The notes under the pieces were generated by a model that worked only from the letters and a program-made list of their open reading frames with translations, searched no databases and was not told the DNA's origin. Both the position numbers and the translations under genes were made by a program. From a virus, in the IMG/VR virus record IMGVR_UViG_3300028829_002760, positions 1 through 64,000 of that record: 64,000 nt of DNA; one strand, 5' to 3'. Positions within the stretch are counted from its first letter, which is position 1. Each line of letters opens with the position of its first letter. Below are positions 42 to 52,997 of this stretch, piece after piece.

Positions 42-3000
42 TTATCTTATTGATAATTGATTTTTACTATTACTTAATTTTATAATCATATTTACATCAT
101 CACATTGTTCTCTTTTCAAATTTAAGAAGTTAAGGTAATGTCTAAACTTTTTTCTTTCTAATTCTGATTTATTATAATCTAAATTATCTGGATTAAGAAC
201 TCTTGTGTGTCCATCTTGAGATGTTACCCAAGTATTTTCAGATGCATAATTACCTTCTAATATAGTTGTACCTGGAACTAAAGGTCCTGTAGGAGGATAA
301 TTAGATCCTTCAGGGAATTCTGCACGATCTTTAGTTATATCCCAAAATTGATTAAATCTATACTTTTGCTCTTCTTTAGAATATAAAATATCATAAGAAG
401 CTAAGTTTCCATTTAACTTAGGATATTGTAATGATAAGTTTATATCATTTTTAGGATACAAGTTAAGATTTAAATATCCTGATACTTGTTCTGAGTTATA
501 TACTATAGCTTGATCAAAATTATAATCTAATACATGATGTTGATCAACACAATTTCCAGAACGTCTTCTATAGCACTCTAAGACATATTCTATAGATCTT
601 GTAGTCATTACATTTTGACCTGAGACAATTGGAAATTCTAACTCAACTCCAAATTGATTATCGTAGAAATTACAGAAACTATCACATAAGAAGTTATGTT
701 TCCATACAGTATTTAATTTAGTACTTAAGAATATATCTTTTGTAGGTAATAATAAATCTGGATGCCAATCATGGAAGCTAATCCAAAATTTATTTTTAGG
801 ATCATAACTAATTGTCCATGAAGCATCTTCAAAAATATATGAATCACCTAATTTATAAATAAGATTTCTATTTTTATCCAATTGAAAATAATCTCCTGTA
901 CCATCCGCGTTTACAGGAATATACTCTACTCTTCCTTTAAATTCATCTTTTAAATAGTAATCCTTCTTACAAAAGTACAGTACGGAATTAGAGCTGTCAT
1001 AAGTTGATTGACATCCTATACCAGCTACAGGATTATCTAAATATGGATAATCAGGAAAATCCTTAATTAATCTATATGGTAAATAAAGTAGAAACCACCA
1101 TTTCATCCCAGCTTGAGATATTTCTTGAAGTCCTTGACCATAAGTAAACACTCTTCCTTGGTTTTGTGAAATATAAAAAATTCCTGCTGGACATGATATT
1201 ACAGACAGTCTGTTCTGTGACGATCCATATTCATATGATGCATCTGCATTAGATACTGCTTGTTGTGGTTGACTAAATAAACCTCCGTCACCTAAAGTAA
1301 TTTTAGTATTTAAATCTGTTTCTAATGTATCAACACCTTGATACATAAGAGGAGATGCATTTTTAAATGTAATAAAAATACCACTTTTATTAATTGATTT
1401 AACACCAGATATTTGAGCTTGAAACTCTTTATAGTTATTAACTAGATAAATAAACCAACTATCCTTAACTGCCTCCTGTTGTTGAGGTAAAGAGTATATA
1501 ATCCTATCAGGATAATATGTATAACATAACTCAGCTACTTCAGGATCATAATATCTATTTTGAGTAAACCCTGATGAAAAATATTGATTAAATAACTTAG
1601 ATACACTTAATGAATAATCGTAAAGATATGCACTAAGTCTTCCCATTATATTAGGATCCATATTAAACATACTAGGATAATCTGTATAATTATATGGATT
1701 ATAATATTTTGCACCAGGAGAATCACTTTGCTTTCTAAAGTCTATAAGAACTTCTGATTCTACAAAAAAATCTCGAATACTAGAATTAGCTAAATAAAAA
1801 TAAGAATTTTTTACACCAAAAAATCCTGGATAGTTACCTTCAGAATCATCTGTATAATCATAATTTTTATTATCAAGATTGTAAAATGCTCTAGGAAATA
1901 CACCTGTTCCTGGTATACTTGGGCTAGAAAAATTTATTACTTCACCTAAAGCAGTTACGTCATATTTAATAGTATTTGGTTTAAACCTTGTATCAGGAAC
2001 CATACTATATAAAAAGTAATTAAATTCAAATCCATCTGGTTGACCAAATAAATAATTATTGAAAAAAATCATATTATTTTTTTCAGTATATCTATTTATA
2101 TAAGTATCACCGCCAAATATAATTGGACTTCTTGATATTTTAGTTAGATAATATTCTGTACTATCTAATGGGCAGTTATAATTAATTTCACCAATAGATT
2201 GAATTTTAGTTAGTTGTTGTTCACATGGTGTTGCAGATATTTGGAATTCACTACCTATCTGACCATACTGATTTCTAGCCTTTTCTTTTAATGCTCCATA
2301 ATGACTAGCAATACGTAAACTGTATGGTAAGTCTTTATCATCTTCATTAAATTTAGGTAGACCAGATGATGTTAAAAAAGCTGGATCACTTGTGTTATCC
2401 GTTATAGTACCTATAGTAACCAAAGATTTATCTTGAAATCCACTTTCAATTAAATGAGGTCCTATATTTACACCATTGGGATATGTAGCATCATAATAAG
2501 GTCCAGATTTTGTTCTTAAAACAACTGTATCAGATCTTCTTAAGTTATTTATTTTGTAACTGTAAAAATTACCTGTATTATCTTGATACTTTCTTACATC
2601 TTGAATATTATCTCTTATGTAAAAACTATCATCTACATTAAATCTTTTTAACTCACTATTAGAAATTTTAGACATTCCACCATAATATCCATGTGCAATA
2701 GATTGCAATCCATATTGTCTAAAAGGTAATATTGAATACATTAATTGAGCAATTATATCAGCACCTTCAGAAAAATAGAATACTAATTGATTTGCTGCAC
2801 CTAAAATTCTAAGTGGAAGTGGTAAATATGCATAAGCAGGAAATTCTATTGTACCAGATAAAGATACAGGTGCAGTTGCTCCTGTTGCTGCTGCTGCATT
2901 AATTGCTCCTGCTAAAGTTTGATCTGCTATACCAACAGATGTTGCTGGATAACCTCCTGTTATTGCAATAAATGCATCAGATATAGGTAGTAAACCAGTA

Positions 3001-7279: not shown

Positions 7280-7857
7280 ATATCAAATTCATTATAATTT
7301 TTTAAAGCCTTATCTTGAGACTTTTTTAAAAAATCTTTATACATTGCACTATTATAAACTTTATCTATCTTAGCTCCTGGTAATACTTCAACATACATAT
7401 TCCAGTTTTCAGGATATGATTTAGCTACTGCTCTTTTAAACTCTCTACATGCAGTAAATCCCCAAAACTCTCTATTTTTCATTTTAAGTTTAGGAGCATA
7501 ATTAGATAAAAATATCTTAGCTAACTTACCGTCAGTTTCCCAATTTTTATTACTTACACTTACACCATACTTTTGGGATTTACCATAGTCAATATTTTTT
7601 TTCTTGCTCTTTTGACATGTACCAATAAAAATCCAACCAAGTTGTTCTGGTAATTGTACACCATCTCTAGTGTCTATTACAGTTTGACATAAGACTTGAT
7701 TAAATCTCTTTATCATCCGTCTAATCAATTTACTATCTAGATTTTTATATCTAGGGTGTGCTTGTTTAAAGTTTTCAAAGAACTCTTTGTCTAAAATAGT
7801 GTTAACTTGAGGTCTATACCTCGAAGCTTTTACATTTGGGTTATTAAATTCCTTCAT
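7276..7857 (-). CDS. IHF/HU-like DNA-binding protein
   Basis: Basic protein; GVQLPEQLGWIFI beta-arm and FTACREFKR; IHF-like genes lie in crAss-like tail modules. Confidence 0.55.
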   Translation of the reverse strand: MKEFNNPNVKASRYRPQVNTILDKEFFENFKQAHPRYKNLDSKLIRRMIKRFNQVLCQTVIDTRDGVQLPEQLGWIFIGTCQKSKKKNIDYGKSQKYGVSVSNKNWETDGKLAKIFLSNYAPKLKMKNREFWGFTACREFKRAVAKSYPENWNMYVEVLPGAKIDKVYNSAMYKDFLKKSQDKALKNYNEFDI

Positions 7858-7895
7858 AATAATATACTAAAAATTTGTGACTAAAGCAAATATAC

Positions 7896-7965
7896 GAAAA
7901 AACAAAACCCCCACTAGTGTGAGGGTATTTGCTTGTCTGTCACAGAAACCAACAAACCTGTAACA
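7896..7965 (-). ncRNA. Candidate sRNA/3'UTR element: hairpin with UUUGUUGGUU loop followed by a terminator
   Basis: Minus strand UGUUACAGG-UUUGUUGGUU-UCUGUGACA (9 bp, 2 G-U) at 7938-7965, then hairpin and U-tract at about 7896-7930. Confidence 0.5.
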
Positions 7966-7983
7966 TATTATCTTATTACTCTA

Positions 7984-9798
7984 TTACCCTATTACTGTTA
8001 CTTTAACATTAATTAGAAGACCTCCACTTAAATCAGTAATTGAAATCTGATTAGCGCTATCTAATTGTATACTGTAATCAATACCTTGAGTAAATACTTG
8101 AAATGGGAGTGGAAGACCATTAGATGCTACTGTTACACTAAGAGCATTAGTATTTAGATTATGGATAAATGGTACTGTTGCAGCTGCACCAATAGTAGTA
8201 GTTACAGATTCAAATTTAGCAACATCAGCTACAATTGAAAGAGTATCAGCAGCAGTTGCGTCAGTAGTAATACCTTTACCACCAGAAACTGTTAAGGTGT
8301 CTGTAAGACTACTTGCAGTAGTTGTACCTGAATCACCAGTAATACTTTCATATACATTAGCATCATTAACTAGAGGGTTAGCTGGTAAACCAGTTCCTGT
8401 AAGACCTGCTCCAACTGTTACACCTGCCCAATCAATTTCTAATGTTGCTACACCAGGAGCACCAGTAATTGCTGTTGTAATTGCAGAACCTACTGCACCA
8501 ACAATTTCTAAAGAATCAGTTACACTACCTGCTGCTACATTACCTGCATCACCAGCTACATTTGAGTAAATTGATGTAATATCACAATCAACTACAATTG
8601 TATTAGGTGAAGGAACACTTACAGAAATCTCAGCACCTCCAACTAAAGTTAGAGTGTCTGTATTAGTAGTTGCAACAGCTGTTCCTACAGATGGACCACC
8701 ATCATTATTACAATCTACAGTTCCAAAGATTAATTGAGTAGAACCTGGGTCAGTGTTAAGTAATTGAAAATTTGCATCTGTACCAGTACCACTAAGAATT
8801 GCACTAATACCATCACCACCAGCAGAAACTGTTGCTGGGTTTGCAAGAATTCTTAGAATTGCACTTCCTGAAGTTGGTGTAACATTAAATCCAGCAAAAT
8901 CAATTAATTCAAACCATCTATTTGGATCAGAAAATAAGTTTTCAATTTCAAGTTGATAAGTAGCAGGATTATAATTTAATGCAATACCAGGCCCTTCAAT
9001 TAAACCTGGACCTACATTTCCTGGAGCGTATATAACACTCTCCATAATCCAGTTAGTCATTTCAGTTTCATCAATAGTGATGTCAAATGTTCTAAGGAAG
9101 TTAGCTCCTGATCCACCTGGAGATGTTACAGTTGAAATCAACCTTACATCTGTTGCATCTACAGTAACTTGATCAACATCTAGTTGCCATGTAGTATCAC
9201 CTGCATTTGGAGTATTTGGAATTTCTAAAATAGAAATATATCCAAATAATGAATTAAGTTCTGTTTCAGGTAAAAGTGTAGCATCAATACCGATAGTGTA
9301 AGTAGTTTCATATGGACCAGGTGTTGATGGATCTACAATTAATGTTAATGCAGAAGCTGCATCTACAGCTACTATACTTTCATTAGCATTTACTACATAA
9401 GGAGTTAATGCAGTACCGTCACCAGTTACAACAACATTATCACCTGCAGTTACTTGAGATGCTGAAGGTAATTCAGCTGGATCTAAGCTTAAGCTATAAG
9501 TTGTTACAGAACCTACTACAATAGTATCTACTAAAATAGCAGCATCAGTTGATTCTACTACAGTAGTTGGGATAACTAATGAGTCAAATCTGCTACAGAA
9601 ATAATTAATAATTTTTGTAACTATAGTATCCATATAGTCATAACGACTAATAACTGTGTCATCACCACATGTTACATCTGTTCCTGTATATACAATGCAT
9701 TGAGCATTGAATACCTCCGTACAGGAAGGAGGACATGGTGCAGTAACAGTATAACTGTTGTTACATCCACAATTTTGATTACAATTTGAAGTTGCCAT
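7984..9798 (-). CDS. Tail fibre/structural protein
   Basis: 604 aa Thr/Gly/Val-rich with repeated D(T/S)L(T/E)xxG units; Cys-rich N-terminus CIVYTG; C-terminal HNLNT motif. Confidence 0.6.
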   Translation of the reverse strand: MATSNCNQNCGCNNSYTVTAPCPPSCTEVFNAQCIVYTGTDVTCGDDTVISRYDYMDTIVTKIINYFCSRFDSLVIPTTVVESTDAAILVDTIVVGSVTTYSLSLDPAELPSASQVTAGDNVVVTGDGTALTPYVVNANESIVAVDAASALTLIVDPSTPGPYETTYTIGIDATLLPETELNSLFGYISILEIPNTPNAGDTTWQLDVDQVTVDATDVRLISTVTSPGGSGANFLRTFDITIDETEMTNWIMESVIYAPGNVGPGLIEGPGIALNYNPATYQLEIENLFSDPNRWFELIDFAGFNVTPTSGSAILRILANPATVSAGGDGISAILSGTGTDANFQLLNTDPGSTQLIFGTVDCNNDGGPSVGTAVATTNTDTLTLVGGAEISVSVPSPNTIVVDCDITSIYSNVAGDAGNVAAGSVTDSLEIVGAVGSAITTAITGAPGVATLEIDWAGVTVGAGLTGTGLPANPLVNDANVYESITGDSGTTTASSLTDTLTVSGGKGITTDATAADTLSIVADVAKFESVTTTIGAAATVPFIHNLNTNALSVTVASNGLPLPFQVFTQGIDYSIQLDSANQISITDLSGGLLINVKVTVIG

Positions 9799-11517: not shown

Positions 11518-14493
11518 TTAATTTCCAGATTTGCAAGTCAAACAATTATTTGAAGAATGATCATTACAATCACATTCAGAACATTTATAATCTGGATCTT
11601 TTAAAGCCTGTAAATCAATTAATTCTTTTTTAACCATCCATTTACGATCATCTTCTGGACAACAGTTAGTTATACCATATCTTTTTTCTAATACAATTTT
11701 ATACATTACATCAGCAAAATTACATGTAATCATATCATATTTTTCTGGTGTACAGATAGGAGTATTATAACCTGGAGTTACTACTCTTTTATTTGGAAAT
11801 GTTCTTGGTGGACATACACCATGTTTACATTCACCAAATGTTTCAAAATAATCTGTATCAATTCCAGGTTCAGGACCTACACATTCTTCTGTAAATATAT
11901 CTTGATTATTTTCCCAAGTTCCTATTGGACAGTCAGAAGCAGAGCCTCCACCATCTAATTCATAATATACACCATTGAAAAGAAGTTGCCAAATCTTACC
12001 AGTAAAAAGTATTTGAGCCCCTGTTCCTTGATTTTCATATATTGGTCCATATTCGTTAGAACCAACTATAGTAAATACATATGTTACAGGAACCCTTTCT
12101 GTTGCATCAGTTAATGTAATACATTCACAGAGTCCTGGAAGCCATTTTAGAATACATATTCTTCCACTTGATTCATGTGGACCTAATGCTATAGATTGAG
12201 TTTCACCATCACAATCTATATATTGATAATTTTTTGTTATTACATCAGAGTAGTTAGTAACTTGAGAACACGTACAAACATGATCTTCTTCACATGCTAA
12301 ACAATCAGCATGAATTTCAGTAACAACAACTATTCCTGCTCCTGCATATATTGATTCTGGGTTTTCAACTAAATTAACTGTCCAACATTCATCACAATTC
12401 TCAACGTTAATAACTTTACCTACAAGTAAAGAAAGATCCGTATATGTATAAATGTTATCTGCTATACCAGCACAGTCTACTAATTCATAATAAGTTCTAG
12501 TACAACTTGTACAATTATCATAAAGACCTTCAAGTTTTATAGCTTGAAAATTTGGTGGCTTATAATCAATTAATTCTACTTTATAACATCCACAATCTGT
12601 TTTTATAACTTGACCTACAAATGCTTCTAAGTTTAAAGAACTATAAATTACACCACCACCTTCACATGATGTTAGTTTATAATAAATAGATTTTATACAA
12701 TCATCACATTCATCATATGATCTAACAACAGTTACGTCTATTAAACAATCACATGGATCTACATCTGGATCAGCAAGACTTACTTCCCAACATCCTTCTC
12801 TACCTAATATCTCAACTACATTAGTACCTGTAAATGCGTACTGATATAAAACATCTGAATTACTAGTTATTACGTCACCTGTTTCACATTCCGTTAGTAG
12901 AAAGCATAGTTCTGGACATTCTGCTAAATCATCATTTATTTCACAATTCCCTATTTCAATAGCACTATATATACTTAAATCAGTTCCTGCTTCAGGGACT
13001 GGTGGTATTTTAGAACATATTCTTATATTTGGAGATGCATCTATTGCCGATATGGTTGTAAATTGATCATTTTCATCTACTATAGAAAATCCATTACTAT
13101 TTTGAACAAACCAACATCTTAGACTACAATCACAAACAACTCCTGTAGGTACTGTAGTTGTAGTAGTATCATTACAATATTCTGTATCAGTTAAAACTAC
13201 ATATGCACATCCTGTATATTCAGGACCAGATACTTCTACAAAAGTACTCTCATATGGTGCGTAAGATTCATCAATAGAAACAAATGGTTCTGTACCATCA
13301 CATGGTATTATTAAATAACAATCACACTCTAAAGGTACACTTTCAGTTATTTTACATAAAGGGACTCCTTGACAGTAATCAACTTCTGACCCATCTGGAC
13401 ATGAATAAACACCTGGATTCTCTGGATCTGGAACAGATTGTCCTATATAATCTCTAGTACTAAATATAATATAAGGTTCTAATTGAGCTTCAGTACTACC
13501 ACAATTTCCTGCTCCTATAGCAGGAGATAGTAAATTTGCTTGAAACTGTGCAAGTGTTATATCATATATTTCACTAGCAAATGCTGCTGAAGATCCTAAA
13601 TTAACACCTGTTAATTTAATAGTATGAATACCAGGAGTTAATGTTATTGGAAAAGTATGCCAATAATTAAATGGAACAGGGTTGGAAGCATTTGCATCTA
13701 AAAATACAGCAAGAGTTCCATCAATATAAAATTTAATTTTATTATCACCTGCAGCACCAATTAAGTATTGTTTAGTTTGGGGACCAGGGATATCTACACA
13801 AAATTCAAAAGATAATTCTTCATTATCAGGAAATCCTGTTGCCCATATACCAGCTTTATTTAATCTTCCACCACTCAATCCAGTACTACATCCTACGACA
13901 TTAGTTCCAAAAGCTTCATTACTAACAGTATCTGTTGCTATTACTGCTGGACCAATTCCATTATCTTCATTTAATGTATAAGTTGCAGGAGGACCACTAC
14001 CTAATATTGGCCAAATTAATGAGCTAATATCTGGATATAACCTTACACCGAATTTACAATAATTAGTATTTTTATTACCTGCTACTATTGGTAATAATTC
14101 TCCAGTATATTCAGCTATAGTTTCTAGTATTCTTTCACATTGATCAGTTTCTGTATTATATGTAAATCCTTCAGGACACTCACAAAATGGTAGTGGGTCA
14201 CATTCTGCACATGATTCAGGATCATCACAACCTCCTTGTCCTGTTAAATCAAATCCTGCTGCAGTAGGTGTTGTAGGATAGGTTACAACATCAGTAGTAG
14301 TTTCACGAAAAAATGTATAACATTGACCAGGGATTAGTTCTCCTCCAGTTCCTAGATAAGGTGTTGCGCCTATGTACGTATATATACTACCAGTCTCTAA
14401 ACCTGTTGAACCTCTAAATAATATTTCAGTACCATCACAACAACTTACAAATCTTGTAATTACTGTGCTGGCTTGGTTAAGATCTTCACTCAT
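11518..14493 (-). CDS. Large Cys-rich repeat structural protein with PA14-like segment
   Basis: 991 aa; repeated (Y/F)xLxxC...VI...C(W/Y)xV...CxxC units; GDNKIKFYIDG...HTIKL segment. Confidence 0.55.
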   Translation of the reverse strand: MSEDLNQASTVITRFVSCCDGTEILFRGSTGLETGSIYTYIGATPYLGTGGELIPGQCYTFFRETTTDVVTYPTTPTAAGFDLTGQGGCDDPESCAECDPLPFCECPEGFTYNTETDQCERILETIAEYTGELLPIVAGNKNTNYCKFGVRLYPDISSLIWPILGSGPPATYTLNEDNGIGPAVIATDTVSNEAFGTNVVGCSTGLSGGRLNKAGIWATGFPDNEELSFEFCVDIPGPQTKQYLIGAAGDNKIKFYIDGTLAVFLDANASNPVPFNYWHTFPITLTPGIHTIKLTGVNLGSSAAFASEIYDITLAQFQANLLSPAIGAGNCGSTEAQLEPYIIFSTRDYIGQSVPDPENPGVYSCPDGSEVDYCQGVPLCKITESVPLECDCYLIIPCDGTEPFVSIDESYAPYESTFVEVSGPEYTGCAYVVLTDTEYCNDTTTTTVPTGVVCDCSLRCWFVQNSNGFSIVDENDQFTTISAIDASPNIRICSKIPPVPEAGTDLSIYSAIEIGNCEINDDLAECPELCFLLTECETGDVITSNSDVLYQYAFTGTNVVEILGREGCWEVSLADPDVDPCDCLIDVTVVRSYDECDDCIKSIYYKLTSCEGGGVIYSSLNLEAFVGQVIKTDCGCYKVELIDYKPPNFQAIKLEGLYDNCTSCTRTYYELVDCAGIADNIYTYTDLSLLVGKVINVENCDECWTVNLVENPESIYAGAGIVVVTEIHADCLACEEDHVCTCSQVTNYSDVITKNYQYIDCDGETQSIALGPHESSGRICILKWLPGLCECITLTDATERVPVTYVFTIVGSNEYGPIYENQGTGAQILFTGKIWQLLFNGVYYELDGGGSASDCPIGTWENNQDIFTEECVGPEPGIDTDYFETFGECKHGVCPPRTFPNKRVVTPGYNTPICTPEKYDMITCNFADVMYKIVLEKRYGITNCCPEDDRKWMVKKELIDLQALKDPDYKCSECDCNDHSSNNCLTCKSGN

Positions 14494-14654
14494 TTTTTAA
14501 TGAACTTTTGTAAATTTCCTTTATTATCTGTATTGGTTTTTACTGATTTTTCATAACTACTTTTGCAACTTCTACAAACTACAGTTCCATTTGATGCTTT
14601 TGCTTTCTGACATCCACAACTTAGTTTTCTCTTACAATTAGGACATGAACTCAT
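14490..14654 (-). CDS. Small Cys-rich 54-aa protein (not in ORF track)
   Basis: MSSCPNCKRKLSCGCQKAKASNGTVVCRSCK...; ATGA overlap with downstream gene. Confidence 0.75.
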   Translation of the reverse strand: MSSCPNCKRKLSCGCQKAKASNGTVVCRSCKSSYEKSVKTNTDNKGNLQKFIKK

Positions 14655-14672
14655 TTTTGTTGGTTTTAAAAT

Positions 14673-18201: not shown

Positions 18202-19224
18202 TTACAAATTCCAATATTTTTCACAAGCTTCAGTAAGATCATTTAATATATCTTCATGAAGTGGATTTTTCAAATGTTCAATTATATCTGACACATTTCT
18301 ACCAAGTAAATTTTGTGTTTTTGTATGATAAATGTATCCATCAGACTTAGTTGTGATATACTTAAAAAAACTTGAATCTCTAACTATAGATTTAATTTTT
18401 AATGTTTCCATGTCAAGCTTAGTAGCTTCTATAAACTGTTTAGCAGCTCTTTCTTTCTTTTTCTCTGCACCATCTCCTGAAATATGTCTATCCATATTTT
18501 CATAAATAACATCTTTTGGAGTTGTCTTTTTATATTGAGCACTTTGAGCATCAACAACTTTAGCAATATAAAATAGTTTAGTACTATTTTTATCATATAA
18601 TTTTTGTAATTCTGAGTAAGCCTTATTTCTAAGTTTTTTATACTCAGTTCTTACCATTACAGTTTCTTCCTCTTTATCTAAATAAAATTTAGGTGGAGTA
18701 GGTAGAGATCTTGCATCATCATAACTTTTTGCTATCATAGCAAATCCTCCTGCTTCAATAGCATATAATTTGATTCTATCAAAAGGTTTTTTGGGATCAA
18801 GATATAAAGGTTGATTACCACAAGAAATATCTATCTTATTCCAAAATTCTTTATTGTCAGGTTTTAGTAAGGTAACCTTATTCCAAAAGTCTGCATCTTC
18901 AGAATCAATAATATTTGATGCTAATTCTTTTTCTAATTCAGCAACTGATTTTCTGATTTGTTTTACTCTAGCTTCTTTATCGTCTTGAGTTAAAGTTTTA
19001 ATTTCTGGTGCAAATTCATTAAGTCCTGTTACATATCTAATGACACCATTAAGCTCTAAACAAGCAAGTTGTTCATTGTGTGTAACACCATCAAATAAGC
19101 TCATACCGTGATCTTCTAATCCCATGTTACTAGCTTGTTGGTCAAAATAAGGTCTTACTGCAATAGCTGTTTTTCTATTGTTACCAGTTTCAACTATTGT
19201 GTAATCTGTTGTTTGTGTTTTCAT
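18202..19224 (-). CDS. Hypothetical protein of head module
   Basis: 340 aa ORF in structural operon. Confidence 0.6.
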   Translation of the reverse strand: MKTQTTDYTIVETGNNRKTAIAVRPYFDQQASNMGLEDHGMSLFDGVTHNEQLACLELNGVIRYVTGLNEFAPEIKTLTQDDKEARVKQIRKSVAELEKELASNIIDSEDADFWNKVTLLKPDNKEFWNKIDISCGNQPLYLDPKKPFDRIKLYAIEAGGFAMIAKSYDDARSLPTPPKFYLDKEEETVMVRTEYKKLRNKAYSELQKLYDKNSTKLFYIAKVVDAQSAQYKKTTPKDVIYENMDRHISGDGAEKKKERAAKQFIEATKLDMETLKIKSIVRDSSFFKYITTKSDGYIYHTKTQNLLGRNVSDIIEHLKNPLHEDILNDLTEACEKYWNL

Positions 19225-19280
19225 TTTATGTTGGTTTTTTAATTAAAAATTGGCAGGGGGGTATCCCCTGCCGTTATATA

Positions 19281-22014: not shown

Positions 22015-23307
22015 TTAATTAAATCTCCTAAACATATTGTTTTTAGAAATCGTTTTTTTCTTACTACTAGTCTTTCTAGTAGGTGTTGTTTTTTCGTATT
22101 CATTACTTAATGTAGAAGAAGTCTTTTTTCTTGATTGCTCAGTTTTTAAAGCTCTTACTGTTTTTTCTACAGCTTGTTTACCACCTTGATCTCTTACTTT
22201 ACTTTTATATCCATTAGGATCTGCAAGTAACCAAAGTGCTTCTGCAATAAGATCATGTCTTGGTTCTACAAACTGATACTTTTCTAATAAGTGTCCTAAT
22301 AAGTTTGTAGGTTTACCAGATATAGAAGGGTAGTTAGGTTGAACTAAACCAGAAAATAGTAAACCTTGTTCTTTTTTATTTAGTTTTAAACCACCTATAG
22401 TACCATTAGCTAAAGTACTGTAAACATTTTCTTGATATGCTTTTGCCTGTTCAGTTTGTTGTTGTTTCATATGTTCTTGCTCTGCTAATTGTTTTCCAAC
22501 AATCTCTTCTTGCATAGCATCTAACTTAGGTTTAAACTGATTAGCTTTTTGCTCAAGTCTTTCTAAATCTTTCCAATCTTGAATTTCTTGCTCAATTTCT
22601 TCAGGAGTACCAAAACCTGTTGCATTTAAATATTGTCTAGCAATTTCTCCTTGATCATATTCATTGGTTACATCAAGCTGTCTCATTTCCTCAACATGAG
22701 CAAGTGTTCTAAATAAACCTTTTAAGTCTTGACCACCATCTGCAACATATTTAGCTGCTACCTGAAGTTCTTCTGGTAATGATTGAAAAAACTCTTGAGG
22801 TAAACTTTGTGCTATCTTGTTTTCTCTTTCTTGAAAATTAGCTTCAAACAACTCTCTAAAGTCTTTGGCCGAATATTCTTCAATTGGTTTCTCATCATCA
22901 AATCCAAATAAAGTTCCTTCTTCAATCATTTTAGAAGCAAGATCAACTAAACCACTTTTATCAGTTTTACGTCTACCTGTTCCTGTTTCATCTTCTTCTT
23001 GAGCAGTTATTGCCTCATCAAGTTCATCTATAGTATCTTGTACTTCAGTTTGACTTACTTCAGGTTGAGCAACACTTTCCGTTTCTACTGCAGGTTCTAC
23101 AGTTGTTTTAACTTCTTCAGTAGGTTTGTCAATAAACGTAGTATCTACAGGTTTAGTTTGACTAAACATAGTCTGTTTATCATCTTCTGGAAGCATGACA
23201 CTTTCTGCACCTGGCATCCCAAAGATTTCATCAATATTTACATCTACCTGCTCTACTGTTGTAGAATCTTGTACCGCTTCTTCTGGCATAGTATTGTTTT
23301 CACTCAT
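22015..23307 (-). CDS. Scaffold-like acidic protein
   Basis: Acidic, helical 430 aa between portal and MCP. Confidence 0.6.
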   Translation of the reverse strand: MSENNTMPEEAVQDSTTVEQVDVNIDEIFGMPGAESVMLPEDDKQTMFSQTKPVDTTFIDKPTEEVKTTVEPAVETESVAQPEVSQTEVQDTIDELDEAITAQEEDETGTGRRKTDKSGLVDLASKMIEEGTLFGFDDEKPIEEYSAKDFRELFEANFQERENKIAQSLPQEFFQSLPEELQVAAKYVADGGQDLKGLFRTLAHVEEMRQLDVTNEYDQGEIARQYLNATGFGTPEEIEQEIQDWKDLERLEQKANQFKPKLDAMQEEIVGKQLAEQEHMKQQQTEQAKAYQENVYSTLANGTIGGLKLNKKEQGLLFSGLVQPNYPSISGKPTNLLGHLLEKYQFVEPRHDLIAEALWLLADPNGYKSKVRDQGGKQAVEKTVRALKTEQSRKKTSSTLSNEYEKTTPTRKTSSKKKTISKNNMFRRFN

Positions 23308-23419
23308 TTTTTGTTGGTTTTATGTTATAGTATAATATAATCAAAAGTAAGGAGTTAAACTTCAAAAATTTAAAATAAATTAAAATAAATTAAAAATAAA
23401 CTGTAATATATAGCTAACT

Positions 23420-30350: not shown

Positions 30351-30708
30351 TAGAAACAAATTTATAGTCTAATAAAACAACACCATCTGTTTGTATTTTT
30401 AGATCTGGATTAATTTTAATCATTTTTTTATTATTCACATCTTTTATAACTAATCCATTTTTCTCAGCTTTATTAATACTATTTCTAACAGTCTGAGGTG
30501 ATTTAAAAATCCAATCTTCTTCTGAAGACGCATCTAAACAAAAGTTGCTAAGTTCTATAGGTTCATTAAAACTTAAAAGAGTTAAACAATTTAAATCAGA
30601 CTCACTCATTGTTATACTGTTAATATAACAATGGGTGAATATCTGAAATTTTACAATTTCCCATTTGGGTAGCCGTACTCTTTTTTGTACTTGGTTTACA
30701 AGTGCCAT
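30328..30708 (-). CDS. Winged-HTH DNA-binding protein
   Basis: SPQTVRNSINKAEKNGLVIK pattern. Confidence 0.55.
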   Translation of the reverse strand: MALVNQVQKRVRLPKWEIVKFQIFTHCYINSITMSESDLNCLTLLSFNEPIELSNFCLDASSEEDWIFKSPQTVRNSINKAEKNGLVIKDVNNKKMIKINPDLKIQTDGVVLLDYKFVSNDTKETE

Positions 30709-31031
30709 TATGCTTTTCTTAGTTTTTTACCTTTACCACTTGGTGCTTTTTTCTGTGGTTTAGGGGTTGGTTGTTCAGGATATGCTGGTGTTGGTGTTGG
30801 TTTTTCAAACTCTTCACCTTCAGGACCTTGGGCTGCTGCCATCATGTTTGCATACTGAATCTGCATAGTTGCTCTTTTAAATCTAGACTCTTCAACTTCA
30901 GTTAGAAGTTTTTCATATTTAGATTGTGATTCAAGATAAGGAAGAGATTTATCATAAAATTCTTTCATCTCATCTCTTCTTGCTTCTAATTCTTCTGGAG
31001 ATAGTTCCTCTCCTAATTGTTGGTTTTCCAT
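30708..31031 (-). CDS. Hypothetical protein
   Basis: 107 aa; upstream TATATTTG (TAnnTTTG) at about 31055-31062. Confidence 0.6.
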   Translation of the reverse strand: MENQQLGEELSPEELEARRDEMKEFYDKSLPYLESQSKYEKLLTEVEESRFKRATMQIQYANMMAAAQGPEGEEFEKPTPTPAYPEQPTPKPQKKAPSGKGKKLRKA

Positions 31032-36597: not shown

Positions 36598-36702
36598 GAT
36601 ATAAATATTTTTTAGTTACTAATATAATATACAAAAAAATATCTAAATAACAAAATCCCCAGAGTTTAATCTAGGGATTCATATCTACAGTATTTAAGTA
36701 AT

Positions 36703-37187: not shown

Positions 37188-37376
37188 TTAAGCATCATAC
37201 TTTTGAAAAGAGCCTGGTTTAGAAGGTTTTAATTCTTGAGTATTTTCTGTAATTAGTGTGAATTTAATTCTTTCTAGTACACCTACTAAGGCTAGATTAC
37301 CGTAAGCTTCTTCATCAATTTTTATTTCTAAACCTGATTCTGTTGCTTCTACTGATAATAAGATCTTTTCTCCCAT
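37188..37376 (-). CDS. Hypothetical protein
   Basis: 62 aa; upstream TATATTTG promoter-like motif. Confidence 0.6.
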   Translation of the reverse strand: MGEKILLSVEATESGLEIKIDEEAYGNLALVGVLERIKFTLITENTQELKPSKPGSFQKYDA

Positions 37377-37513
37377 AATGCTATTTGTTGGTTCTACAAA
37401 TATATAAATTTTATTTGTTTAAACTATAAACCCCAGATAAAAATATCTAGGGCTTATATACAGAAATCAGAATGTATGGAAAATTAGATAGTGTAAATCT
37501 AATAAATTTTTTT

Positions 37514-50205: not shown

Positions 50206-51055
50206 AGTTACCAGAAAGTCTATGGTAATTAGACCTTCTGGTAGATCTACAGATTTTATTTCACCAAGTTTTGGACACGGCTGTCTTTACAATTGTAACT
50301 ACTGTTATATGAAAAGACACAAACCTGAAGGATTAAACATAGCAAAGAATTATACAGATATATTATCTGAAATAAATTCACATGCTACTTTTGATACTAC
50401 AGAAAAACCTAATCAAACTCATGATGAGTATATTACTTATGATATAAGTTGTAATGAAGATTTTGCATTACATTCTAAATATCATAAATGGAAAAAAATA
50501 TTTGATTTTTTCCTAGAACACCCTAAAGCAATGGGATCATTTGCAACAAAGTATGTTAATAAAGACTTTCTTAATTATGATCCTAAAGGTAAAATTAGAG
50601 TTAGGTTCAGTCTTATGCCTGAAAAATGGAGAAAGATATTAGAGCCAAATACATCTACTACATTTGATAGAATTATGGCAATTGACTATTTTATAGAAGC
50701 TGGTTATGATGTTCATATAAACTTTAGTCCTGTTATAGTAAATAATGATTGGTTAAAAGAATACAAAGTTTTATTTGAAAACATTAATTATTCTGTAAAT
50801 AATAAATACAAAGACAGAGTAAAAGCTGAAGTAATATTTCTTACTCATAATGAAAGTAGACACAAATATAATTTAGATAATAAATTACCTGGAGAAGATT
50901 TAATTTGGGATCCTGAAATACAGGAAACTAAAAAATCTCAATATGGTGGGAAAAATTTAAGATACAAACATGATTTCAAAGCAGAGTATATTAAACAATG
51001 GACAGAGGTTCATAATAATATTATACCCTGGAATACAATAAGATATATATTTTAG
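50189..51055 (+). CDS. Spore photoproduct lyase-like radical SAM protein
   Basis: GCLYNCNYCY (CxxxCxxC), FATK, RVRFSL, GYDVHINFSPVI; terminal YIF as in SplB family. Confidence 0.8.
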   Translation: MSLVTKVTRKSMVIRPSGRSTDFISPSFGHGCLYNCNYCYMKRHKPEGLNIAKNYTDILSEINSHATFDTTEKPNQTHDEYITYDISCNEDFALHSKYHKWKKIFDFFLEHPKAMGSFATKYVNKDFLNYDPKGKIRVRFSLMPEKWRKILEPNTSTTFDRIMAIDYFIEAGYDVHINFSPVIVNNDWLKEYKVLFENINYSVNNKYKDRVKAEVIFLTHNESRHKYNLDNKLPGEDLIWDPEIQETKKSQYGGKNLRYKHDFKAEYIKQWTEVHNNIIPWNTIRYIF

Positions 51056-51873: not shown

Positions 51874-52209
51874 ATGAGAGATAAACTAATCATTATAATA
51901 GAAAAACATGGTCTATGGTTCTTTGCTTTATGGTGTGTATTTTTAGTAATTGCTTTAACGAGTTGTTCAGAAAGATTTCAAAATTCAGATCAAAGATTAG
52001 AGAAAAGAAATAATGCTGAGGTAATTAATGCAAAGATTTATAAAACTGAGATTCATTCAGACATTATAGAAACATTTGAAATGGATGGCTATAAAGTTAT
52101 ATTATGGCATAACGGATATGGTAGTGATATGGAAGTTATTCCAATTGAAAATTCTACAATTAATAGTAATTGCTTTAACAAGCTAAACCAAAACAAAGAT
52201 GGTGAGTAA
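51874..52209 (+). CDS. Putative lipoprotein
   Basis: Hydrophobic signal followed by LTSC lipobox. Confidence 0.55.
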   Translation: MRDKLIIIIEKHGLWFFALWCVFLVIALTSCSERFQNSDQRLEKRNNAEVINAKIYKTEIHSDIIETFEMDGYKVILWHNGYGSDMEVIPIENSTINSNCFNKLNQNKDGE

Positions 52210-52591
52210 AGAATTTATACCATATGAAGAAGCATTAGCTTTGAAAGAGTTAGGATTTAATGAAAAAGAATGTTTGGGATTTTGGAGTAAAATTCACGGG
52301 TTGTTCATTACCAAAACAACAGGTGAGTTAAATGAAAATGCTGGTGAATGTAAAGCACCACTATACCAACAAGCATTTAGATGGTTTAGAGAAAAACATA
52401 GTCTATTTCATGTTATCACAATAGCAGATCTTGGAAAATATGAGACAGGTGATCCTGACTTTCAGTGTGCTATTTATAGTAAAGATCCTGTAGTAATTAC
52501 AAATATAGATACTTGTAATACATATGAAGAAGCAGAACTTGAATGTCTTAGAAAACTAATTGAAATTGTAAACCAAAACAAAGATGGGTAA
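52199..52591 (+). CDS. Hypothetical phage protein
   Basis: EFIPYEEALALKELGF..APLYQQAFRWFREK..TYEEAELECL family of Bacteroidota phages. Confidence 0.65.
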   Translation: MVSKEFIPYEEALALKELGFNEKECLGFWSKIHGLFITKTTGELNENAGECKAPLYQQAFRWFREKHSLFHVITIADLGKYETGDPDFQCAIYSKDPVVITNIDTCNTYEEAELECLRKLIEIVNQNKDG

Positions 52592-52997
52592 AGAAACATT
52601 ATTAGAGTTTAGATTAAGATTAAATAAAGACGTACCAGCGTATCACCAAAAGGGTTATGAAGATACTTTCTATATTAGTATTGAAAGTTTAGCAAGAGTA
52701 CCAATAGATAACCACTGGGATATTATTAGTGTGATGGGTAAACTAATTCTAAAAAGAAAATTAAAAAATTTGTATATAGAAATCCAAAATTACAAGGGGT
52801 ATGATTGTGGGCATAAAATGATGTTAATTATTAGTAGTGACTACTATAATTTAGTAAAGTCATTTAATGACGTAGCAGATAAACTGTCTAAAATGGATAA
52901 AGACTGTCCTAAATTTAGATTTGAATTAGAAGATAGAACTGCTGATATTGATGAAGATATGCCAGGAGAATTTGTAAAAATAAAAGAAGATGAGTAA
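52584..52997 (+). CDS. Hypothetical protein
   Basis: 137 aa cassette-like ORF. Confidence 0.6.
   Translation: MGKETLLEFRLRLNKDVPAYHQKGYEDTFYISIESLARVPIDNHWDIISVMGKLILKRKLKNLYIEIQNYKGYDCGHKMMLIISSDYYNLVKSFNDVADKLSKMDKDCPKFRFELEDRTADIDEDMPGEFVKIKEDE

Follow-up and report, generated by a model that had tools for sequence, protein, structure and literature searches.

A conserved hairpin behind a tail-fibre-like gene of crAss-like phages presents a loop complementary to start-region tags of late virion genes: a candidate RNA regulon

Introduction

Phage T4 encodes the protein repressor RegA, whose operators lie at the start codons of many early phage mRNAs and have a sequence loosely in common, and in Staphylococcus aureus the C-rich hairpin loops of RNAIII present a seed to the ribosome-binding regions of several mRNAs. 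In phages P1 and P7, the antisense RNA c4 is excised from the transcript that also carries its targets. It is ~77 nt long, and short complementary stretches within it, probably in loops, pair around the ribosome-binding site and block translation (PMC12197685, reviewing Citron and Schuster 1990). GibS and FopS, two sRNAs of Bacteroides thetaiotaomicron of ~65–70 nt, combine a seed with a terminator, pair with the start regions of several mRNAs and repress their translation, and one member of their family is derived from a 3′UTR (PMC11697453). Their phylum, which lacks Hfq and does not use Shine–Dalgarno sequences (PMC11697453), is also that of the presumed hosts, Bacteroidota, of the phages considered here. 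These phages make up a large family of uncultured crAss-like phages of the virulent type, and post-transcriptional control of expression in crAss-like and related Bacteroidota phages is largely unknown.

Here we describe an RNA element from one such phage. The DNA analysed, referred to below as the window, comprises positions 1–64,000 of a phage genome of 109,934 bp and 30% G+C, whose genes lack Shine–Dalgarno sequences and have A-rich stretches ahead of their start codons, and which encodes giant proteins of 2553, 3457 and 2457 aa at its far end. By class, the candidate belongs to a known kind, that of phage base-pairing RNAs acting on start regions. Like c4, it is a candidate phage-encoded RNA with a loop-displayed complement to start regions; c4, however, serves temperate-phage immunity within one operon (icd/ant), whereas the element of the window lies in a virulent-type phage, in a 3′UTR before a terminator, and its complements are found at several dispersed virion genes. 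Nor does c4 have any sequence or Rfam similarity to the hairpin of the window. The seed of FopS is a single-stranded 5′ stretch and that of the present element would be a hairpin loop; moreover, GibS and FopS are host genes with their own σABfr promoters and multiple paralogues, which the element is not, and they share no sequence similarity with it (Rfam 15, which should include FopS according to PMC11697453, gave no match). The likeness to RegA is that of one phage-encoded regulator facing a start-codon sequence shared by many mRNAs, but RegA is a protein acting on early mRNAs, whereas the candidate is an RNA loop with late structural genes as its putative targets. RNAIII, finally, is a large multi-hairpin host RNA with an anti-Shine–Dalgarno seed, in contrast to a single hairpin whose tag is A/C-rich and unrelated to Shine–Dalgarno sequences.

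Results

A hairpin and a terminator follow a tail-fibre-like gene

All features of this locus lie on the minus strand. A tail-fibre-like gene of 604 aa (7984–9798), assigned through a weak PHROG match to a tail-fibre connector (8e-7), carries in its 3′UTR, 18 nt past the stop codon, a hairpin (7938–7965) with a 9-bp stem and the loop UUUGUUGGUU. In the predicted fold, the 5′ arm TGTTACAGG (7965–7957), the loop TTTGTTGGTT (7956–7947) and the 3′ arm TCTGTGACA (7946–7938) succeed one another, and the alignments place behind them an A/C-rich single-stranded spacer of 11 nt, GACAAGCAAAU (7927–7937), which is ACAACAACGGCAAAG in many relatives and moderately conserved in composition. The second hairpin of the module is the intrinsic terminator (7897–7926), with its stem at 7907–7926 and a U-tract reaching to about 7897, found by both terminator scan and folding. 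The original prediction of a minus-strand 9-bp stem, two of its nine pairs being G–U, between the fibre stop and its terminator agrees with both analyses; the span that it gave, 7896–7965, is right for hairpin plus terminator but not for the hairpin alone. RNAfold predicts the two hairpins together at −30.7 kcal/mol (z = −3.7; none of 200 shuffles folds as well) and leaves the loop unpaired in both the minimum free energy and the centroid fold.

Directly after the terminator comes a promoter-like stretch for the next gene (7858–7896), with TATATTTG at 7887–7894 and then TTTTTAGTATATTATT running into the ATG at 7855–7857, and this stretch is kept in all relatives. We take it to be a promoter since TATATTTG boxes resemble the Bacteroidota TAnnTTTG −7 element. 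The gene that it precedes, of 193 aa, starts 2–5 nt past a conserved TTTTTAGTATATTA(A/T)T box (7855–7896, minus strand; in the same place in L010–L089), an arrangement kept family-wide and in Cellulophaga phage phi4:1 (see below); if the box is a −7 promoter element, the mRNA of the 193-aa gene would be leaderless or nearly so.

The module is conserved across the family and covaries as a minus-strand RNA

The module occurs once per genome in 27 of 27 related phage genomes (GC 29–46%) and in more than 100 further loci. The exact 28-mer is found in nine IMG/VR contigs with differing flanks. Using the neighbouring 193-aa protein rather than the hairpin as the query, we gathered 80 loci (58–90% identity), and hairpin and terminator were present in all of those that extend far enough upstream; the changes that distinguish their nine stem variants are all wobble-preserving. 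In total, this protein has more than 470 representative homologues. In a wider collection, where the neighbouring protein is 32–50% identical, the clades have stems without shared sequence (GUCAUAG/CUGUGAC, GUCACGA/UCGUGAC, AUCACAA/UUGUGAU and GCUGUGA/UCGCAGC), and yet the loop core UUGUUGGU is almost invariant and the same across clades with unrelated stems.

Several loci (L293, L301, L306 and others) seemed to be without the hairpin. In the five whole genomes checked (G021–G025), the module was found one gene further upstream, ahead of an inserted gene of about 390–440 aa, with stems that include GGAGG/CCUCC, GUUCUGUGU/AUACAGAAC and UGUUACG/CGUAACA. The inserted gene, seen between the module and the 193-aa gene in L365, L368, L375, L381 and L387, has a promoter-like stretch of its own ahead of it, AAACT..AAAGTTTA..GGAAAC..TTTTCGTAAATTA.

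A covariance model was built and 32 diverse members were aligned. In this alignment, which was fitted to the model and so favours the structure somewhat, 97.7% of pair cells hold standard pairs, compared to 81.7% in shuffles, and 13 of 14 pairs show two-sided changes; none of 500 shuffles reaches the observed values and no slid register comes close. Two-sided changes occur in all seven pairs of the hairpin helix, with 96.9% of its cells paired, and in six of the seven pairs of the terminator helix. G–U pairs make up ~19% of hairpin-helix cells and would be A–C mismatches on the opposite strand, hence it is the minus-strand transcript that folds. Selection acts on the structure in its form as a minus-strand RNA. 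In the genome of the window, the model has a single strong match, of 84.5 bits. Between two small genes, at 36634–36698 on the minus strand, a weak second match (16.6 bits, E = 0.22) appears to be another terminator-plus-promoter joint, one without the conserved loop.

We also considered a plain or tandem intrinsic terminator for the first hairpin and rejected it, since an A/C-rich spacer and no U-tract comes after the stem, and an invariant loop of 10–12 nt is joined to a stem that is free to change.

The gene upstream of the hairpin is variable, with a C-terminus that differs among relatives, and the hairpin begins 2–25 nt past its stop codon. The alignments of the relatives contain no conserved promoter upstream of the hairpin, nor is anything else conserved there, which, together with the start near the stop codon, indicates a 3′UTR element and not a gene with a promoter of its own. 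An independent sRNA gene is therefore unlikely, and a 3′UTR-borne or processed element fits better.

Database searches returned nothing that resembles the module. No Rfam family, C4 and FopS included, matched the 64-kb window at gathering thresholds, and at lenient thresholds the locus gave chance-level matches only (E ≥ 0.4). Searches of GenBank phages with the DNA, the fibre protein and the 193-aa protein gave no match, and those with the capsid protein distant matches only; for the distant representative P0001, no relative was found in IMG/VR. A literature search with the motif string returned only primers, and the element is not described in the literature searched on crAss-like late promoters and phage sRNAs. 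Short contigs at a depth of 1–5, several of them 100% identical to the window, were found in four public runs (two listed as marine metatranscriptomes, one presumed to be RNA and one of unknown kind); these contigs show neither ends, strand nor level, and this includes one of 177 nt, from the run of unknown kind, that covers hairpin, terminator and promoter.

Late genes carry the complement of the loop at their start codons

Five minus-strand sites with the complement AACCAACA(AA) had been predicted in the window, and all five are where they were said to be. Three are complete matches (10/10) with the sequence AACCAACAAA: one at 14656–14665, 2 nt ahead of the ATG of a 54-aa zinc-ribbon peptide gene (14490–14654); one at 23310–23319, 2 nt ahead of the ATG of a gene for a 430-aa scaffold-like protein (22015–23307), which adjoins the capsid gene; and one at 37384–37393, 8 nt ahead of the ATG of a 62-aa gene (37188–37376) and just past a TATATTTG box. 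At 19229–19236, AACCAACA (8/10) stands 4 nt ahead of the ATG of a 340-aa gene (18202–19224), and at 31017–31025, AACCAACAA (9/10) begins 6 nt past the ATG of a 107-aa gene (30708–31031). The predicted enrichment over shuffled sequence is strong, as the 8-mer AACCAACA has ten copies in the window with 3.3 expected (none of 100 shuffles reaches ten), and ACCAACA occurs in five of the 98 start regions of the genome with 0.21 expected from composition-preserving shuffles of those regions (maximum 3 in 1000). Because the excess is measured against shuffles of the same regions, A-richness near start codons does not explain it. Elsewhere, at 52185–52600 on the plus strand, each of two adjoining small genes has the A/C-rich junction (C/G)TAAACCAAAACAAAGATGG ahead of it; this junction is related to the late-gene tag and matches 7 nt of the loop only.

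We assembled 20 genomes and mapped the orthologues of the tagged genes. The 340-aa gene has ACCAACA at most 30 nt ahead of its ATG in all 20 (at −6 to −12 in 19 and at −24 in G011), often doubled, and the 430-aa gene has the tag in 19, at −8 to −11, and in about 78 of 80 loci from relatives. The zinc-ribbon peptide gene is tagged in at least 12 genomes (−9 to −11), the 107-aa gene in 16 (at +7 or +10 in 15 of them and at +13 in one), a 121-aa gene (67819–68184) in six (−8 to −12) and a gene of about 94 aa, which has no orthologue in G000, in about six (−9 in four and +14 in two). The 62-aa gene, with a tag in only three genomes (−15 or −16), is the weakest member of the set for this reason. 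Altogether, 69 of about 140 start-proximal copies begin at −12 to −9, a sharp peak, and the consensus AAAACCAACAA extends over the entire loop complement. Every relative examined keeps the loop as well as the targets. Many relatives have second copies past the ATG of the 430-aa gene, and as all three reading frames are represented among them, selection acts there on nucleotides and not on protein; at the 107-aa gene, the tag is always in one frame and selection on protein is possible.

Pfam and PHROGs have nothing for most products of the tagged genes. The 54-aa peptide, conserved family-wide, has four cysteines in a zinc-ribbon-like arrangement and weak Pfam matches to Elf1 and DksA/TraR zinc fingers, and could bind nucleic acid. 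Among the proteins compared, only that of the capsid is more conserved than the 340-aa protein (53–89% identity across the family), which matches neither Pfam nor PHROGs and whose AlphaFold model (pLDDT 77) had no PDB match by Foldseek.

The positions of the copies bear on whether the sequence is read in RNA at all. The complementarity would need no RNA pairing if a protein bound AACCAACA/TGTTGGTT as double-stranded DNA, whichever way round the site lies, both close to the starts of late genes and where the fibre operon ends, as a double-stranded site reads alike on both strands. We regard such a DNA site as highly improbable: all start-proximal copies are in the sense orientation and keep a fixed distance from the ATG and not from any promoter, the copy of the 340-aa gene lies ~20 nt past a terminator with no room for a promoter, and the stem around the inverted copy covaries with G–U pairs that exist on one strand only, which duplex DNA would not need.

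Loop and tag are the outstanding conserved intergenic words of the family

In an unbiased screen of 22 near-complete genomes (GC 29–46%), we kept those 8-mers that at least 21 of them have in their sense-oriented intergenic DNA. Sixty-seven passed, and the seven with two or more G/C were AAAAACCA, AAAACCAA, AAACCAAC, AACCAACA, CCTTTTTT, TGTTGGTT and TTGTTGGT, that is, four tag words, two loop words and one terminator tail. Besides terminator tails, tag and loop are hence the sole information-rich conserved intergenic words family-wide, and they are reverse complements of each other; in our view, coincidence is excluded for practical purposes. The anti-tag 8-mer occurs once per genome in sense-oriented intergenic DNA, and the inspected copies are the hairpin loop. 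The alternative put forward in the original prediction was a protein-bound translational element with the hairpin as coincidence; a coincidental hairpin is very unlikely.

When the start regions were ranked by interaction energy corrected for accessibility, the five named targets took ranks 1–5 of 98 (−8.2 to −5.8 kcal/mol). A plain duplex scan without accessibility, in which 17 start regions reach −9 kcal/mol or lower and shuffled loops average 10 (5 of 300 reach 17), barely separates real from shuffled loops because the sequences are A/U-rich, and the corrected ranking is more informative. The predicted energies of the loop/tag duplexes are modest, and a full 11-bp helix from an 11-nt loop closed by a stem is impossible without strain.

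Covariation between loop and target motif, to which the original prediction had looked for support, was not found: the change of U10 to A or G (G001 and G002) and an inserted A (the L315 clade) face unchanged tags. As both partners are otherwise invariant, natural covariation cannot decide on pairing. The notion of an sRNA, 3′UTR-derived or independent, that pairs with initiation regions was thus borne out in its conserved complementary sites within start regions, but neither in an sRNA gene of its own nor in joint changes of loop and targets.

The absence of loop/tag covariation also suits an account in which two independent elements have nothing to do with each other, the tag being an A/C-rich translational enhancer or protein operator (for the ribosome, S1 or a phage protein) comparable to the operators of T4 RegA, the loop the site of another protein (for 3′-end protection, processing or terminator control), and their complementarity functionless. 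AAACCAA-type words are indeed general in the start regions of this phage (10 of 98, with 0.9 expected), those of early genes included, and are also found in phi4:1, so that the tag may serve first as a translation element itself, and its sharp placement at −12 to −9 resembles that of a ribosome-related element. The zinc-ribbon peptide, encoded by one of the tagged genes, is a conceivable nucleic-acid binder for this account. Furthermore, in G022, G024 and G025 most tags are AAAACCAAA, which matches 8 loop nt only, and even where the tags mismatch the loop keeps its 5′ half invariant, implying that something besides these tags constrains the loop. Against these points, the account leaves to chance (~1e-4 or less by a rough estimate from base composition) that the only information-rich conserved words are exact reverse complements over 8–11 nt, and that the anti-tag stands once per genome in sense-oriented intergenic DNA, in a hairpin loop where inspected; we consider it rather unlikely.

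The same excess conservation of the loop, beyond what the phage tags require, could also mean that its partners lie in the host. The hairpin might act as a decoy or sponge, mimicking a host rRNA segment or a loop-like host sRNA with which the tag pairs, or targeting tagged host mRNAs, so that host transcripts would be the main targets, or the outcome would be activation or stabilisation. The tags occupy the usual Shine–Dalgarno position, and the tagged genes are, judging from gene order, probably among the most highly expressed late genes, both of which would suit a decoy. It is nevertheless an unlikely explanation in our estimate, as the phages conserve tags of their own at a fixed set of orthologues, a sign of a circuit internal to the phage.

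A possible counterpart in the cultured phage phi4:1

Cellulophaga phage phi4:1 is distantly related to the phage of the window through the capsid gene. Directly past its tail-fibre gene gp046 (NC_021788.1, about 50975–51016; L400, about 975–1016, minus strand) lies a syntenic 11-bp hairpin with the loop UUUUUUGGUUUUU (U6GGU5), followed by a terminator and by a stretch that resembles the promoter-like one of the window. Covariance model R1 misses this hairpin, the loop being different, and direct inspection brought it to light. Phage phi17:2, which like phi4:1 is cultured on Cellulophaga baltica, carries the hairpin too. AACCAA words occur in 14 of the 193 start regions of phi4:1 with 4.3 expected, and most of them are AAAACCAAA-type words, which match the loop of phi4:1 itself. 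A differing loop together with matching tags hints, at the level of sequence, at deep co-variation between the two, but falls short of proof because such tags also accompany canonical loops.

Discussion

We favour a model in which a late transcript that ends behind the tail-fibre gene would carry a 3′ module of about 70 nt made up of hairpin, A/C-rich spacer and terminator. The hairpin would present the invariant loop UUUGUUGGUU(U), which may pair antisense with the tag (A)AAACCAAC(A)AA, located 2–5 nt upstream of the start codon or just past it in the mRNAs of a fixed set of late virion genes, the putative targets being the 430-aa scaffold-like, the 340-aa, the zinc-ribbon peptide and the 107-aa genes, with others that vary by clade. 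The acting form might be the full-length mRNA or a stable processed 3′ fragment, with action either in trans or, within long polycistronic RNAs, in cis. A duplex of 8–11 bp at −12 to −2 would most probably keep the 30S subunit from binding and so reduce or time translation, given that these genes lack Shine–Dalgarno sequences and would rely on unstructured A-rich start regions. Conserved loop and tag words that are complementary to each other make pairing likely, and occlusion of the start region through loop/tag pairing, a mode of action shown for GibS and FopS and for c4, is in our judgement probable; accumulation of the RNA, its pairing and the repression are what we infer from these comparisons.

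More tentatively, it is possible, though we hold it with some doubt, that across these phages from marine and freshwater viromes the leaders of head and other virion genes share an 'address tag' read by a single loop with which the tail-fibre transcript ends, and that this makes up a post-transcriptional regulon, through which completion of late transcription feeds back on the translation of assembly proteins. If true, this would be an RNA-based device for the timing or stoichiometry of virion assembly in hosts without Shine–Dalgarno pairing and Hfq, to which the rules learned in E. coli do not transfer. For virulent phages of the crAss-like group, Rfam and the literature searched contain no RNA regulon of structural genes, and this one would be the first; it would also give the tag AAAACCAAC(A) a function as an element of start regions. 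The possible counterpart in phage phi4:1, which is cultured and tractable, makes the idea testable at the bench, and with the module a new RNA family would become available for the annotation of uncultured phages, whose genomes number in the hundreds.
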